From a virus (lineage: Duplodnaviria; Caudoviricetes), in the IMG/VR virus record IMGVR_UViG_3300028374_000002, positions 32,001-96,000 of that record: a DNA stretch of 64,000 nucleotides; one strand, 5' to 3'. Under the pieces are notes generated by a model. It was not told where the DNA came from and ran no database searches. It was given only the letters and a program-made list of their open reading frames with translations. The number at the start of each line of letters is the position of its first letter. Position 1 is the stretch's first letter. This document shows positions 7,895-18,353 of the stretch, in pieces. Made by a program: the position numbers and the translations under genes.

Positions 7895-8170
7895 AATCAT
7901 GCCTTTATATCTCTTTTTAAATCTAAGTACTCATTCACAAAATATAAAGTCTAAAGTCTTTGTTTTTGGTGTTGATTTACTCCCCACACGAACATATTCA
8001 CATATTAAAATAATTTCTTATAAATAAAACTTCATAATTCTAGTATTTATATTTAATTAGTGAAAATATTATTTGCTATTGGGTTTTAGTAAAATTTGTA
8101 TAATCTACTCAATATATATTGTATAAATGATAGTTCTAATTTATTTCCAATAGTCTCATATCTACTTGTT

Positions 8171-8500
8171 TTAGTTATGCTCTATAAATTTTTTCGCTAA
8201 TTTATTGAGTCCAGTATCATCTTCATTTATTTCAAACTCACCTCTAATAAAGTCATAGTTTCTAAGCATATGACCACAATAACTTTCTGAGTTAGCTAGT
8301 TCATTAAGCCAAGTCATATAATCTAAGGGCTTGTCATTATCTTCTATATGTTCTGTTCTTAATAAAATTATTTCCATAGACCCATGTCCACTTAGTAACT
8401 TTTTTGTTAAAGCGAAATCCTTTATAGTTCCTTTAAACTCTTTCTTAGTTCCCCATCCAAATTCGGGAAGTTTTTGAAATAGACTAATTAAGTTTTCCAT
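8171..8500 (-). CDS. Hypothetical protein (109 aa)
   Basis: ORF with normal composition. Confidence 0.7.
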   Translation of the reverse strand: MENLISLFQKLPEFGWGTKKEFKGTIKDFALTKKLLSGHGSMEIILLRTEHIEDNDKPLDYMTWLNELANSESYCGHMLRNYDFIRGEFEINEDDTGLNKLAKKFIEHN

Positions 8501-8610
8501 ACCTATTTTTTGTTATGTATAATAACAAATGTTATTAATATTTCTTTATACATCAAAAGTAATCATTATCTATAAGACATACAAGCTTATGTCTAACTAT
8601 TTATGATATT

Positions 8611-8745
8611 GATTCAAAAAGGGCTACATCTAAACTAACCGATATTCCTTTTGGGTCAAGCCGAAGCCCCCTCGGTAGGAACAGATAACAGGCTTTAGAC
8701 ACCTTCAGTTTTAAAATCTTATCTGTTGTTTGTACACCCACTAAG
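8611..8745 (-). ncRNA. Candidate structured RNA (family unknown)
   Basis: GC-enriched intergenic stretch. Stems UGGGU/ACCCA and AACAGAUA/UAUCUGUU, a cUUCGg tetraloop hairpin, and a final hairpin with a U-run. Confidence 0.4.
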
Positions 8746-8790
8746 TATATGCATTTAATCCCTTTTTAAATCAATAATAATTTTTTATAA

Positions 8791-9033
8791 TCATAAGGTT
8801 GTGTCTAAAGAGTCCCACTTTTTCCTAGATAGTTCTCGATGCCTTTTATCATCAATTTTTTTATCTACGCTATACCCCCAGGTGAGTACATATTCTAAAG
8901 AAACTAGTTCTTGCCATTCTTTATCAGTCAAGCAACCTTGTGGGTAGTCGAAGTGTTGACTGGTAATATGTGTGTGTAAAAAGCGTTTTATTACCAATTT
9001 AAATCTATTGGGGGTTTTATTTAGTCTATTCAT
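8791..9033 (-). CDS. Small hypothetical protein (80 aa)
   Basis: ORF in the minus-strand series. Confidence 0.65.
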   Translation of the reverse strand: MNRLNKTPNRFKLVIKRFLHTHITSQHFDYPQGCLTDKEWQELVSLEYVLTWGYSVDKKIDDKRHRELSRKKWDSLDTTL

Positions 9034-9050
9034 TATTCAAATTTATAATC

Positions 9051-9329
9051 CTAACACTTTTCACCACCTTTACCATCAAGACTTTTAAGTAAATGATTTG
9101 ATCCAGCTAAGTCAGTTAGTATTCTTAATTCTTCAAAACTCAAGGTGTTCCTTGCTACTAGTTGACCATCTTTGTGTCTTTCAAGCTGAATTCCTAATGC
9201 AGAAGTCTCTGGTACTATCCTATAGGTTTCATTAGTTTCTGTATTGTGTATATTAGTAATTCCATCAATGTCAGTATAGATATGACACCATTTGTTGGCA
9301 TTTGGTAATTTTTCTCTTGTCTTATTCAT
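9051..9329 (-). CDS. Small hypothetical protein (92 aa)
   Basis: ORF in the minus-strand series. Confidence 0.65.
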   Translation of the reverse strand: MNKTREKLPNANKWCHIYTDIDGITNIHNTETNETYRIVPETSALGIQLERHKDGQLVARNTLSFEELRILTDLAGSNHLLKSLDGKGGEKC

Positions 9330-14060: not shown

Positions 14061-14231
14061 CTAACCAAGTAATTGTACACGATAAGTTCTGCCCTTATCA
14101 TCTTCCCAAACACTTCTACAATTAATCATGTTTATTTCATCACCGTGTACATTTCGAACATGTCTTAGGTTCAGGCTTTTTGCCTTCTCTATAGTTATAA
14201 CACAAAATGTTCTTAGATACAAATTAAACAT
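14061..14231 (-). CDS. Possible small protein (56 aa, below cutoff)
   Basis: MFNLYLRTFCVITIEKAKSLNLRHVRNVHGDEINMINCRSVWEDDKGRTYRVQLLG fills the gap and overlaps the upstream stop. Confidence 0.4.
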   Translation of the reverse strand: MFNLYLRTFCVITIEKAKSLNLRHVRNVHGDEINMINCRSVWEDDKGRTYRVQLLG

Positions 14232-14427
14232 ATTGGCTTAATGTATCAATAGCGTTTTCAATTTCCCTTTTACCACTCTCAAGTCCATCAGTTGCTTCAT
14301 CAAAACTCTCTAATAATTCACTAAGCTCACTAAATAAATCACGAAGCTTATCTCTTTCTTTTGAAATTACAATCTTTGATTCTTCAATACCTGATAATAC
14401 CTTGTCTAATTCTTCTTTAGTTACCAT
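14224..14427 (-). CDS. Small coiled-coil protein (67 aa)
   Basis: Heptad-like Leu/Glu pattern. Confidence 0.7.
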   Translation of the reverse strand: MVTKEELDKVLSGIEESKIVISKERDKLRDLFSELSELLESFDEATDGLESGKREIENAIDTLSQYV

Positions 14428-14488
14428 ATCTAGTTAATACTTTATTTTGCCTACTCTATTAAGTTTTCGGCTTCTCTTATTTAGAGTA

Positions 14489-14496
14489 CAAATATA
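14489..14496 (-). promoter_or_regulatory. Bacteroidota -7 box (TATATTTG)
   Basis: Exact match in the intergenic region upstream of 14427. Confidence 0.55.
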
Positions 14497-14578
14497 GCAA
14501 TGTTTTTTGGATTACAGAAAGATTACTATATTTTTTATATTCATTTCTGTGTAATTAGATTCATTTGAAGCATTTGTT

Positions 14579-15799
14579 TTACCATATGTTTTTAAATCCT
14601 CTTTTCATTAACCATTCCCTTGCTAATTCTAACCTCTTAGTCTCATTTATTATAGAACTTACAACTAAGTTATAAGTCTCTCTAGATTCTAAGTATCTCT
14701 TATACTTATCATAAGACTCAAAATTATCTTCGATATCTTCTAAAGACATATCTTTAGCTAAAGAATAGTTTTTCATAGATAATATAAATGGTGCATCTTT
14801 ATTACCTTTGAGGTGATTTACTGCATATTCTTTCAATGATAAGCCCTTATACTTATTATATTCATTTTCTAAATATTCAACTCTGTCTTTTGTATAGGAT
14901 TTTACAACGGAAACCAATCTATCTATTCTATCGATAGATTCTATATCTTCCTCTGGTATCTCTGAGATAAGATCATCTATATCATCATTTAAAATATGTT
15001 TTATAAGGATATTTTCTCTGTATAAATCATCTGTTAAAAGTCCGTGTAAATTTCTATACCATTCAGTTTTAACTTTCAATACTATACCTTCCATTTCAAC
15101 AACCCATCCTTCTTTATTCTCAACAGTCTTGGCTAATTCAATAATATCATCTAATGTATAACATTCAAATTCAGCTTTCTTTATATTAACCCCACTTATA
15201 TCGATATACTCACCAGTCAAGTTGTTACGTAATTTTAGTAGAATAAGTTCTTCTTTCATATATCTTAAAACTATTCTATTAGAAGGTGCTACATATTCAA
15301 ATATAGGAACAATGTCATTGTCTAAACAATCATTTACAAAGTTTTTTATTTCCTCATTATCATTATAAACTCTATTAATCCCATCGGCTTGTGAATTATC
15401 AAATCCTATCTTAGATTTGCCAACTATCTTGCCATTTGGTAGCTTTATAAAGGTGGCTAATGAACCATCTTCTTTATTATTGACATTTATAACATTATAA
15501 TCTTTAACAACATCATATAGAGTCTCTGGAACTTGGTTCAAGTTGAAAAACTTCTTTAGTAGCAAGTATCTTTTAAATAAACTACCATCTTCATTAAATA
15601 CAAATGTTAATCCTCTTAACTCATAGGCACTTATATCTGAATCTTCTCCAAAAGGTTTGGCGAAGTCTGACCATTGTGCTAGTCTATAGTTAAATACAGA
15701 AATATTAAAACCTTCAACATTTACTTTAGTTTCATAAAATGCGGAATCTACTAGATTACACAAATCAACACATTGTTTATAAGTTATTAATTCTGACAT
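14579..15799 (-). CDS. T4 Rnl1-like RNA ligase
   Basis: ELRGLTF, KKFFNLNQ, motif I KEDGSL, IFEY, EGWVV, LKVKTEWY. Start moved to MSELITY (15799). Confidence 0.9.
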   Translation of the reverse strand: MSELITYKQCVDLCNLVDSAFYETKVNVEGFNISVFNYRLAQWSDFAKPFGEDSDISAYELRGLTFVFNEDGSLFKRYLLLKKFFNLNQVPETLYDVVKDYNVINVNNKEDGSLATFIKLPNGKIVGKSKIGFDNSQADGINRVYNDNEEIKNFVNDCLDNDIVPIFEYVAPSNRIVLRYMKEELILLKLRNNLTGEYIDISGVNIKKAEFECYTLDDIIELAKTVENKEGWVVEMEGIVLKVKTEWYRNLHGLLTDDLYRENILIKHILNDDIDDLISEIPEEDIESIDRIDRLVSVVKSYTKDRVEYLENEYNKYKGLSLKEYAVNHLKGNKDAPFILSMKNYSLAKDMSLEDIEDNFESYDKYKRYLESRETYNLVVSSIINETKRLELAREWLMKRGFKNIW

Positions 15800-15820
15800 C
15801 TTTTTATTTTTAGTTGAAAA

Positions 15821-15828
15821 CAAATATA
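15821..15828 (-). promoter_or_regulatory. Bacteroidota -7 box (TATATTTG) for the RNA ligase
   Basis: Exact match 21 nt upstream of the ATG at 15799. Confidence 0.6.
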
Positions 15829-15867
15829 CAACTTTTTTATATATAAATTAAATAAAATATACTTATT

Positions 15868-16485
15868 ATGAAATTATACGAATTACTAAAAGAATATGGC
15901 ATACCAGCTAAAGAAGCCAAGCAGAGGTTGGCTAATAAACAAGTTAAAATAAATGGTGAAATAACTGGCGGGGAGTTTAGACTAGGTAATGTGACTGATG
16001 TTTATGACCAAGGATTTTTCTTAGAGGAATTATACTCTAAGACAGATTACTCTAAATATTCTAAACAAATAATATTCTTTGGTTTAGAGAATTTATTTGG
16101 TAGTAACATAGAAAATGAGGTGGTTGACTTTTTAGCAGACTATAAAATGATAGAAATAGCAAAAGAAAATGTTATATTTCTAAAAATAGACAAGGGAATT
16201 CAAAAAACAAGGCTTAACGTAACATACCATATAGAATCAGAATCTAATTTTGATAGAGAGTATGAAATGCCAAAAGAAATAGATGAGTCTGATATACTTA
16301 ATAAGTTAAAGTCTGATCTAGAAAAGGTAGAAACACAATTATCAAATAAAGGATTTGTGGACAATGCACCATCTTTTAAGGTTGAAGCGGCTAGAAAAAG
16401 ACTAGAGAACATAAAATCAAAAATTGACGAAATAACTAAAAATGAGAAAGTATATTCATTTGAAAGATTTAACAAGCTAAAATAA
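15868..16485 (+). CDS. S4-like RNA-binding domain fused to a ValRS C-terminal tRNA-binding coiled-coil arm
   Basis: N-terminal LYELLKEYGIPAKEAKQRLANKQVKING (S4-like); C-terminal LKSDLEKVETQLSNKGFVDNAPSFKVEAARKRLENI (ValRS arm: KLSNxxFVxxAP). Confidence 0.7.
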   Translation: MKLYELLKEYGIPAKEAKQRLANKQVKINGEITGGEFRLGNVTDVYDQGFFLEELYSKTDYSKYSKQIIFFGLENLFGSNIENEVVDFLADYKMIEIAKENVIFLKIDKGIQKTRLNVTYHIESESNFDREYEMPKEIDESDILNKLKSDLEKVETQLSNKGFVDNAPSFKVEAARKRLENIKSKIDEITKNEKVYSFERFNKLK

Positions 16486-16488
16486 GAA

Positions 16489-16511
16489 AACCCACCTATA
16501 ATAAGTGGGTT
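16489..16511. terminator. Imperfect hairpin, probable terminator between convergent genes
   Basis: AACCCACCTAT-A-ATAAGTGGGTT. Confidence 0.5.
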
Positions 16512-16540
16512 CTCCATCGAGTAATTAAAACCATTAAAAA

Positions 16541-16957
16541 TTACCCAATCATTTGCTCTAGGTTAGCATTTCTATTTATCATCTTATCACCACCTAATTC
16601 TTTTTTTATCATAGAAACTCTGCATTTTAAATTTCTGTCACTATCACAACTCGTTATAACAGGATATATACTGTTTCTAGGCTTAATATTAGAGATAGTT
16701 CTCTTATGACCGAATCTGTCTGTAAAAGACATTCCAATTACATTTTGTGTAAATCCAACTTTCCTACATAACATTCTTTGTATTTCATAATTTTTACCAA
16801 CATTTTTAGACAATGAGAGTTCGATGTTTATGTTGCAAGATAATACGTTGCTACTATGTTCACTTATTAAATATTCTAGACCTTCTCTTTTTGTAATATC
16901 AGAAATGGCTTTATCTATTTCTTTCTTGATACTGTCAATTTTAATTTTAGTAAGCAT
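16541..16957 (-). CDS. Hypothetical protein (138 aa)
   Basis: Host-type promoter upstream; ends in the shared RNANLEQMIG motif. Confidence 0.7.
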   Translation of the reverse strand: MLTKIKIDSIKKEIDKAISDITKREGLEYLISEHSSNVLSCNINIELSLSKNVGKNYEIQRMLCRKVGFTQNVIGMSFTDRFGHKRTISNIKPRNSIYPVITSCDSDRNLKCRVSMIKKELGGDKMINRNANLEQMIG

Positions 16958-16981
16958 TGTGTATATTTTTTAAGTTGAATA

Positions 16982-17012
16982 CAAATATATAACATAATAT
17001 GGTATATACAAA
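16982..17012 (-). promoter_or_regulatory. Complete Bacteroidota sigmaA promoter
   Basis: TTTG (17012-17009) - N19 - TATATTTG (16989-16982). Confidence 0.75.
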
Positions 17013-17033
17013 GTATTTGTGCTATTATTTAAA

Positions 17034-17069
17034 AATACTCCCTTGTTATATCTAAAACAAGGGAGTATT
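17034..17069 (-). terminator. Intrinsic terminator after the M42 peptidase
   Basis: 14-bp perfect stem AATACTCCCTTGTT/AACAAGGGAGTATT followed by a T-run on the minus strand. Confidence 0.85.
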
Positions 17070-17074
17070 AGTTT

Positions 17075-18133
17075 TTAGACTATGAAGTCAGATTTTAGTT
17101 CCTTTAGTGTAGCAAGAAATACTTTTATAGCATTATCAACATCATCCTTGTGTGACATCTCAACTGTTGAGTGCATATACTTAAGTGGTGTTGCAATCAT
17201 GGCAGTTTCTATACCTTCTCTAAAAAAAGATAATGTATCATTACCAATAGATCCAATTTCGATTTGTAGTGGTATTTTATTTTCTTTTGCAACATTTCTT
17301 ATCAAAGCATTAATCCTTTTAGAATTCTGGTGTGTATAATGGACACTTGGTCCCTTACCACCTATAACATCACCGTGCTTAGCTTTATTATAAGAAGGTG
17401 TCGTTGTGTTGTGGCAAACATCATGCACTAATGCTAAATTAGGTCTTATTTTCTTGGCCATATGATTTGCACCCTCTAGTCCAACTTCTTCTTGGGAAGA
17501 ATTCACGACATAAAGGTCAAAATCAAGTTGTATTTTTTTACTAACAACAAGCCTTGCTACCTCTGCAATAATAAATCCACCAATCTTGTTATCCACACTT
17601 TTACAAGTGTAGTAATCTCCAATCATAGAGAATTTAGTATCATTTGTAATCAGATTACCCACTTCAACACCACTTTCCAAAACGGCATCCTTATCTTTTA
17701 ATCCTAAGTCAATATAAAGTTCGTGTTGATCAGGGCCATTTTCAACACTATTGTTTCTAGTATGAATAGCAGCCCACCCAAATACACCATTAGAAGTGTT
17801 TCCATTATGGTGGTGTATAATTACTGGTCTTGATGGTGCAATCATATTATCACTACCACCGTTTCTCTTAACTCTTAATAATCCACTATCTTCTATATGT
17901 GAAATCATCCATCCAATTTCATCAACATGTGCCTCTATGACAACTTTTTTTGCATCTGGTTTACCACATCTTATAATGCCATATGAACTATGATAAACAT
18001 CTCTGTGTATGTTTTCTCTGTCTATAAATTTAGACAAATATTCTTCCCATACATCTTGTGCTTCTTTTTCATTACCAGATGGTGAATGTGTGTTTAGATA
18101 ATTCTCTAAAAATCTTTTACTCTTCTTTCTCAT
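17075..18133 (-). CDS. M42 family metallopeptidase (TET aminopeptidase-like)
   Basis: SPSGNE, EAHVDEIG, KSVDNKIG, QEEVGLEGA, DVCH, PLKYMHSTVE. Start moved to the ATG at 18133. Confidence 0.92.
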   Translation of the reverse strand: MRKKSKRFLENYLNTHSPSGNEKEAQDVWEEYLSKFIDRENIHRDVYHSSYGIIRCGKPDAKKVVIEAHVDEIGWMISHIEDSGLLRVKRNGGSDNMIAPSRPVIIHHHNGNTSNGVFGWAAIHTRNNSVENGPDQHELYIDLGLKDKDAVLESGVEVGNLITNDTKFSMIGDYYTCKSVDNKIGGFIIAEVARLVVSKKIQLDFDLYVVNSSQEEVGLEGANHMAKKIRPNLALVHDVCHNTTTPSYNKAKHGDVIGGKGPSVHYTHQNSKRINALIRNVAKENKIPLQIEIGSIGNDTLSFFREGIETAMIATPLKYMHSTVEMSHKDDVDNAIKVFLATLKELKSDFIV

Positions 18134-18155
18134 TTTTGCTTTTTTCAATTTATAT

Positions 18156-18353
18156 TTAGTTTAAGTCTTTTAATAATGATTTAGCAGTCTTATACTGCCT
18201 TTCGCTTAGTATTCTTATATTTCGCTTGCCAATATTAACTTTTTCTAAGTATTTATTACTCTTTAATTGCTTTTTTAAGGATGTTAAGAAGGTATTTTCT
18301 CCTTTATAAGTTCTTATTTCTTTATTCAATTCTATCTTTTGTTCCAGTTCCAT
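18156..18353 (-). CDS. Small basic hypothetical protein (65 aa)
   Basis: YKGENTFLTSLKKQL...LSERQ; -7 box upstream. Confidence 0.7.
   Translation of the reverse strand: MELEQKIELNKEIRTYKGENTFLTSLKKQLKSNKYLEKVNIGKRNIRILSERQYKTAKSLLKDLN

Follow-up and report, generated by a model that had tools for sequence, protein, structure and literature searches.

A phage protein that combines a predicted S4 fold with a valyl-tRNA synthetase-type arm is a candidate tRNA-binding accessory protein

We examined the gene for a 205-amino-acid (aa) protein in a 64,000-nucleotide stretch of viral DNA (hereafter the window), which corresponds to bases 32,001–96,000 of the linear 201,264-bp IMG/VR virus record IMGVR_UViG_3300028374_000002. 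The protein joins an N-terminal domain that is predicted to adopt the S4 fold to a C-terminal arm of the type found in bacterial valyl-tRNA synthetase (ValRS), and it has no catalytic domain. Both domains are already known; their combination and the insert-bearing form of the S4 domain have no curated family. Likewise, we did not find the architecture, the insert-bearing S4 variant or a phage family made up of the N-terminal domain alone in the published literature that we searched. We infer from the architecture that the protein binds RNA, probably tRNA, and we tentatively favor the reading that it is a small non-enzymatic RNA/tRNA-binding accessory protein in the phage translation toolkit. 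The gene lies back to back with that of a T4-type RNA ligase 1 (Rnl1). This adjacency reflects chance in the local gene order and not a conserved partnership, and it should not count as evidence for a tRNA-repair complex.

Architecture of the 205-aa protein

A Pfam search assigned residues 144–191 to the family Val_tRNA-synt_C (PF10458) with 31.3 bits against a cut-off of 25.9 (E = 2.4e-7). A six-frame search gave 33.9 bits for the same family, and the NCBIfam valS model PRK05729 was matched on its final 100 positions (E = 4.9e-6). Precomputed PF10458 matches were present in eight of 10 close homologues. The segment LSNKGFVDNAP, by which the initial annotation had recognized the ValRS arm, begins at residue 158, and the longer tip motif KQLSNxxFxxxAPxFK was invariant in 13 homologues with identities down to 31%. 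Mean column identity over 10 homologues was 66%, again with an invariant hairpin tip. Lysine or arginine was kept at positions 146, 148, 153, 156, 171, 176, 178 and 185, which lie on both arm helices, and the basic character of the protein resides in the arm (net charge +1 to +5).

The AlphaFold2 (AF2) model of the whole protein had a predicted local distance difference test score (pLDDT) of 79. In this model, residues 141–159 and 169–191 formed helices (pLDDT 86–91) that pack as an antiparallel two-helix hairpin. Residues 133–197 superposed on residues 795–862 of the ValRS arm in 1gax, the solved complex of Thermus thermophilus ValRS with tRNA(Val), with Z 7.3, a root-mean-square deviation (rmsd) of 2.8 over 65 residues and 22% identity. 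The phage arm shares with the bacterial one the LSNxGFVxxAP tip and a hairpin of ~55 residues. It differs in lacking the synthetase body (Rossmann fold, editing domain and anticodon-binding domain) and in being preceded by a predicted S4-fold domain. The linker between the two domains was modeled as strands at residues 115–121, 128–133 and 136–138, with pLDDT of 59–76.

As the initial annotation had stated, the 205-aa protein contains no synthetase catalytic motifs: HIGH, KMSKS and any match to the class Ia catalytic domain (PF00133) were all absent from it, and a Pfam search did not find PF00133 anywhere on the 201-kb record. The name ‘valyl-tRNA synthetase’, which one source gives to P0007, is a misnomer because the class Ia catalytic core is missing. 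The NCBIfam envelope would continue ValRS-body homology across residues 84–140. We rejected this extension, since the region is the least conserved one and no structure match covers it.

The N-terminal domain was recognized chiefly through its predicted fold. The AF2 model of residues 1–112, built on an alignment of 45 sequences, had a pLDDT of 91.5 and a predicted template-modeling score (pTM) of 0.81. In an exhaustive VIA structure search, only 42 of 48,161 PDB chains reached Z ≥ 2 with this domain, and the top ~31 were all S4-domain proteins (Z 5.8–3.0, 50–62 residues aligned). The best were the RsuA-type pseudouridine synthase 1vio (Z 5.8) and residues 357–424 of E. coli TyrRS (6hb5_A; Z 5.7, rmsd 2.6 over 62 residues), followed by YlmH (Z 5.2), RqcP (7aqc_Y; Z 5.1), MTRES1 (Z 4.4) and Hsp15 (Z 4.2); RluF, eS4/uS4, TlyA and IMP3 were also among the S4 matches. 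A shape search of the ESM atlas gave template-modeling (TM) scores, normalized by target, of 0.62–0.75, including 0.72 for S4_2, 0.67 for the TyrRS C-terminal domain and 0.66 for an RqcP cluster. The aligned S4 residues (55–62) were scattered over model positions 1 to ~106 because a helical segment, residues 48–89, interrupts the core. All 13 divergent full-length homologues shared the alpha-L residues K8, K18 and R20, and R20 was kept in at least 90% of a wider set that included stand-alone N-domains.

Searches of other kinds returned little. Foldseek, which had been proposed as a check, found no PDB match at E ≤ 0.001 with the whole or the N-domain model, and its weak lists consisted mostly of S4 proteins, TyrRS and ValRS. 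An ESM atlas feature search with the N-domain gave no usable match. Searches of PDB sequences with phmmer and hmmsearch gave nothing significant (keratin, ALBA noise, uL29 at E = 1.1); the family profile touched eS4 at E = 0.017, and this alignment fell precisely on the S4 motif. We concluded that the S4 identity of the domain is weak by sequence and strong by modeled structure, and in this form the S4-like N-terminus claimed in the initial annotation was borne out. The S4-like C-terminal domain of TyrRS (SYY_C-terminal / S4) is among the closest folds and also begins with the alpha-L motif, whereas the phage domain is N-terminal and non-basic, carries an acidic helical insert of ~40 residues and shows sub-threshold sequence similarity.

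Comparison with five near-identical strain variants showed at most eight synonymous codon changes and one non-synonymous change in the 205-aa gene, which indicates purifying selection; the open reading frame (ORF) is therefore a genuine gene. It forms a monocistronic unit, with a gap of its own upstream and a hairpin of 14 pairs that follows the stop codon directly. The hairpin segment was 100% conserved among strains, and the divergent intergenic region was 95–100% identical. The length of that region depends on the ligase start: it is 44 nucleotides (nt) from the TTG and 68 nt (15,800–15,867) from the ATG, so that the 68-nt gap originally reported holds for the second start only. Coordinates are collected in Table 1.

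Table 1. Features of the 205-aa gene and its divergent neighbor, in window coordinates
Feature	Position	Strand	Basis or remark
Rnl1, T4-type RNA ligase 1	14579..15823	-	PF09511 and PF20819 above cut-off; 414 aa from TTG, 406 aa from ATG at 15799
Divergent AT-rich intergenic region shared with Rnl1	15824..15867	.	Sequence
Coding sequence of the predicted S4-fold/ValRS-arm protein	15868..16485	+	ORF of 205 aa with ATG start; homologues; strain variants
Predicted N-terminal S4 alpha-L fold, residues 1–112 (core 1–47 and 90–112)	15868..16203	+	AF2, structure searches
Predicted helical insert within the S4 fold, residues 48–89	16009..16134	+	AF2 secondary structure, alignments
Beta-strand linker, residues 113–138	16204..16281	+	Only in the fused ~200-aa form; least conserved
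ValRS-type antiparallel coiled-coil arm, residues 139–192	16282..16443	+	PF10458, conservation
Terminator-like hairpin, 14 pairs	16485..16515	.	Between the convergent 205-aa gene and 138-aa ORF

Phage setting and distribution of the family

CheckV estimated the 201,264-bp record to be 28% complete, and it is therefore only a piece of a considerably larger phage. Its GC content is ~28%; it carries seven clustered tRNA genes, and Pnkp and RNB are encoded on it as well. For several genes the nearest relatives were in the ‘Mahaphage’ genomes LR745206.1, LR756502.1 and LR756504.1 (634–642 kb), for which Al-Shayeb et al. (2020; PMC7162821) give Bacteroidetes hosts. The same study reported that huge phages encode as many as 15 synthetases, alongside tRNAs and genes that ligate cleaved tRNAs (PMC7162821). 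The carriers of the 205-aa family are huge and large phages, and most of them apparently infect Bacteroidota.

Homologues were gathered by word-based and exhaustive searches. About 20 full-length lineages (180–208 aa) were recovered, all of them on large-phage or metagenome contigs. Their contexts were all large-phage-like, with many small ORFs, a Gp23-like capsid protein, DUF7487, T4 Y00F and synthetase fragments. The N-domain by itself makes up more than 40 clusters of phage proteins of ~105 aa (P0019–P0060; for example L012:10001-10351 and L014:2945-3280), and their genes sit amid small early-type ORFs. These stand-alone clusters have no Pfam or PHROG family, and PHROGs has none for the 205-aa protein or its relatives. 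A tblastn search of 50,697 GenBank phage records with the 205-aa protein and a stand-alone N-domain relative found no match. A scan of IMG/VR yielded no loci with the alignment of close homologues and four with a broader alignment. Two stand-alone members, P0033 and P0044, have an extra insertion of 60–80 residues after the alpha-L motif.

One longer fused form was found, a 507-aa protein (P0065) on a 2.7-kb contig, with an unannotated extension of ~300 residues past the arm. It is either a real fusion or the product of read-through or misassembly. No relative of ValRS length appeared in the search for longer fusions, which was word-limited. The N-domain family (~110 aa) is similar in size to T4 Vs, the ValRS modifier. 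Homology to Vs was considered and rejected, as there was no PHROG or phage-record match.

A candidate tRNA-handling role and its alternatives

The two modules resemble the appended tRNA grips of aminoacyl-tRNA synthetases, a TyrRS-C-like S4 fold and a ValRS arm, and this resemblance suggests how the protein might act. The ValRS arm touches the elbow of tRNA(Val). By analogy, the basic arm of the phage protein would set its invariant tip and its stripe of conserved lysines and arginines on the tRNA elbow, while the S4 module would touch either another RNA surface or a partner protein. The tRNA would be held and not chemically altered by the 205-aa protein. On this reading the protein would be a general tRNA handler for a take-over toolkit (the phage's own tRNAs, synthetase cores, Thg1, deformylase, RNase R and Rnl1/Pnkp) and not a subunit of the RNA ligase.

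Several results support this tentative reading. Two independent structure searches gave lists made up almost purely of tRNA- or rRNA-binding S4 proteins. The arm matched PF10458 above cut-off and the C-terminus of valS, and it is basic, with an invariant tip and conserved lysine or arginine on both helices. Moreover, genes for RNA metabolism and translation occurred repeatedly within 10 kb of the gene in independent lineages. Besides Rnl1 in the window, L001 has a LeuRS core, a class IIb core, Thg1 and a PF09414 ligase; L006 has Thg1 together with an AlaRS core; L010 has genes of the ArgRS-like and split class IIb kinds; L002 has a deformylase (PDF) and RNase R/II; and L009 has NusG. The initial reading of the domains, including the lack of a catalytic core, is supported, and so is the proposal made at the outset that the protein binds RNA or tRNA without catalysis.

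The concept has precedent. Proteins of the Trbp111, Arc1p and EMAP II type are likewise tRNA-binding modules of synthetases that exist as separate non-catalytic proteins and hold tRNA, some of them in trans for synthetases. Their fold is the OB fold (tRNA_bind), whereas the phage protein would combine S4 with a coiled coil; we found no Pfam tRNA_bind match and no homology to these proteins in the 205-aa protein. Should the protein bind tRNA, it would represent a non-catalytic tRNA handler specific to phages, built from recombined synthetase-appended modules, and a new component of the huge-phage toolkit. It would also offer a handle on the more than 40 stand-alone N-domain clusters in phage genomes.

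A number of observations weigh against this reading. Among the Pfam S4 families (PF01479 / PF13275), the N-domain matched S4_2 alone by sequence; this match was below cut-off (14.5 versus 24.6 bits, E = 0.034) and covered residues 2–32 only, and the family profile retrieved no ValRS or S4 chain significantly from PDB sequences. The N-domain is not basic (net charge −5 to +2), unlike Hsp15, RqcP and uS4; its insert is acidic, with a net charge of −2 to −6 in most homologues, and the domain may for these reasons bind protein rather than RNA. In the whole-model VIA search, generic helical hairpins tied with 1gax, and the shape is a common one. Because such hairpins score equally, the fold of the arm is not diagnostic by itself; the diagnostic feature, as judged from the alignments, is its sequence. 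Gene context provided only a loose translation/RNA theme, since the neighborhood is not conserved, and in L032 and L033 the homologue overlaps a metallopeptidase gene and stands beside capsid genes.

The closeness of the fold to small ribosome-associated proteins raises a somewhat unlikely alternative, in which the S4 domain would sit on rRNA or P-site tRNA while the coiled coil reaches another ribosomal site; during infection, the protein would then modulate translation by the host or the handling of nascent chains. The ligands of RqcP/YabO, YlmH and Hsp15 on split 50S subunits are P-site tRNA and 23S rRNA. Like the phage protein they are small, non-catalytic and of S4 fold, and together with MTRES1 they were among the nearest structures, and the RqcP cluster was matched in the atlas search as well. 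The arm also has weaker likenesses to the ABC-F C-terminal domain (PF16326, E = 0.096; Uup C-terminal domain 2lw1, TM 0.55) and to the uL29 hairpin, and the products of some neighboring genes work in translation or on nascent chains (PDF, M42/M20-type peptidases and NusG). However, those ribosome-binding proteins are strongly basic, a property that the phage N-domain does not share, and they have no ValRS arm. The sequence searches did not place the phage protein in their families, and its closest folds include TyrRS-C as much as RqcP. The arm fits the ValRS family better than ABC-F, which reached 13.4 bits, and no conserved ribosomal context was seen.

The charge of the N-domain would also agree with a protein-binding adaptor. 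In such a case, an acidic S4-derived domain would have lost RNA binding and would dock on a phage or host protein, with the arm serving for oligomerization or as a mimic of the ValRS arm that interferes with a host factor. The domain is acidic to neutral and its insert acidic; it circulates alone amid small early-type ORFs, with a median isoelectric point of 6.4 among the stand-alone relatives. The arrangement in L032 and L033 suggests translational coupling of the homologue to the peptidase gene, and the 507-aa form adds ~300 residues of unannotated sequence. Nevertheless, the conservation of K8, K18 and R20 weighs against this reading, and the best-conserved part of the protein is the ValRS hairpin tip with its flanking lysines and arginines, which oligomerization alone explains poorly. 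We consider an adaptor of this kind unlikely.

Related huge-phage contigs encode stripped-down synthetase cores, often beside Thg1 (L001:4844-6094, L001:7565-8398, L006:10396-11274, L010:5272-6453 and 7925-9101, L014:5273-5902). One is a 416-aa LeuRS-like core with no editing, anticodon-binding or C-terminal domain, whose best PDB match was the CP1-less Mycoplasma LeuRS 3ziu. The others are a 277-aa class IIb core, a 292-aa AlaRS core, a 393-aa ArgRS-like core, a split AspRS-like pair and a 209-aa HisRS-like piece. No truncated core was found on the 201-kb fragment itself, which represents about a quarter of its genome. That the 205-aa protein is a detachable, trans-acting tRNA-binding subunit that replaces the lost tRNA grip of such cores seems very unlikely to us; if true, it would amount to a phage-private tRNA-charging system.

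The Rnl1 neighbor and other flanking genes

The divergent neighbor is a bona fide Rnl1, as had been stated initially. It matched PF09511 with 68.5 bits, the T4_Rnl1_C domain PF20819 with 31.1 bits and phrog_562 with E = 2.8e-54, and it has the KxDG lysine motif as KEDG at residue 117. The match to TIGR02308 (E = 7e-43) reached 147 bits, under the equivalog cut-off of 242. We concluded that the ligase is a neighbor of the 205-aa gene and not a demonstrated partner.

The divergent pairing was seen only in the window and its five near-identical strain variants. Flanks were compared in L001/L027, L006, L028, L002, L009, L010, L030/L031, L032 and L033, and in these ~9 other lineages with usable flanks Rnl1 was absent within 10 kb of the homologue; the PF09414 ligase of L001 is a different one and lies 8 kb away. 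The closest relatives of the ligase were in the three complete Mahaphages, with 47–49% identity in two and 37–44% in the third. These genomes keep the order h65, h138, slot, Rnl1, in which the slot holds an adenylate kinase and small ORFs. Whole-genome profile searches with alignments A1 and A2 found no 205-aa homologue in any of the three, and the positive control, the phage's own genome, was recovered at 3e-39. In G001, a related 271-kb record estimated to be 89% complete, both genes were present, 106 kb apart.

The record also encodes a T4-like Pnkp of 303 aa (G000:C1:156455-157366, equivalent to L011:1486-2397), with phrog_505 matched at E = 1.2e-15, an AAA_33 P-loop kinase domain and a HAD-type C-terminus. 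This gene lies outside the window, 108 kb from Rnl1, and adjacency is thus not how this genome arranges its repair genes. As in the T4 Rnl1–Pnkp pathway of tRNA repair, both enzymes are present, and the 205-aa gene abuts one of them. In relatives, the linkage of this gene to the ligase is not maintained, and the ligase has a C-terminal domain of its own for tRNA specificity (PF20819). We know of no accessory tRNA-binding subunit for the T4 pathway.

Against the strain variant L026, Rnl1 showed 32 synonymous and 21 non-synonymous codon changes. Across L022–L026, Rnl1 and an adjoining 67-aa coiled-coil ORF (window positions 14,224–15,823) were hot spots of divergence, with nucleotide identities of 92–98% for Rnl1 and 87–90% for the small ORF, compared with 99–100% for the flanking genes. 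This pattern suggests that diversifying pressure or recombination may act on Rnl1. The 205-aa gene, unlike the diverging Rnl1, is near-invariant between strains, so there is no co-variation of the two.

These results bear directly on the function that had been proposed for the pair, namely that the protein acts as a shield, decoy or adaptor for tRNA, together with Rnl1 and perhaps Pnkp, against host anticodon nucleases. Some features are as this proposal would have them: the divergent arrangement is kept in all five strain variants across a gap of 44–68 nt, the phage has Pnkp, G001 carries both genes, and Rnl1 evolves fast, as expected of an arms-race gene. However, the pairing is missing in every other lineage with flanks, the Mahaphages have the h65–h138–Rnl1 block without the 205-aa gene, the two genes are widely separated in G001 as are Rnl1 and Pnkp here, and co-variation is lacking. 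The linkage in relatives that the initial proposal had called for was found only as adjacency in near-identical strains, and a functional tie to tRNA repair is highly improbable.

Other genes near the 205-aa gene varied as well. Immediately upstream of the region, a 1047-aa protein is encoded. When window positions 16,541–18,353 and 14,579–15,823 were compared with L016 and L017, the 205-aa gene and an M42 peptidase gene were found in variable slots of the h65–h138–Rnl1 block; in the Mahaphages the variable slots hold an HD-domain-like protein (judged by eye), the adenylate kinase and small ORFs. Metallopeptidases of the MH clan recur near the family. The M42 gene of the window (17,075–18,148, minus strand) is two genes away, another M42 gene lies 10 kb away in L002 (20387-20597), and L032:8859-10004 and L033:9186-10001 encode an M20/M28-like peptidase (phrog_4191) whose stop overlaps the start of the 205-aa homologue. 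In the Tara marine lineages (L001:9333-9929, L006:4657-5289, L028:9252-9887), the divergent neighbor is a conserved protein of ~200 aa instead of Rnl1, and a patatin-like lipase is encoded just downstream. Lastly, in L024, one of the near-identical strains, a 414-aa ORF (L024:10641-11885) has been inserted between the stop of the 205-aa gene and the terminator hairpin. By eye, its sequence resembles a transposon protein of the TnpB/IS605 OrfB type, and the 138-aa ORF beyond the insert is broken into two pieces.

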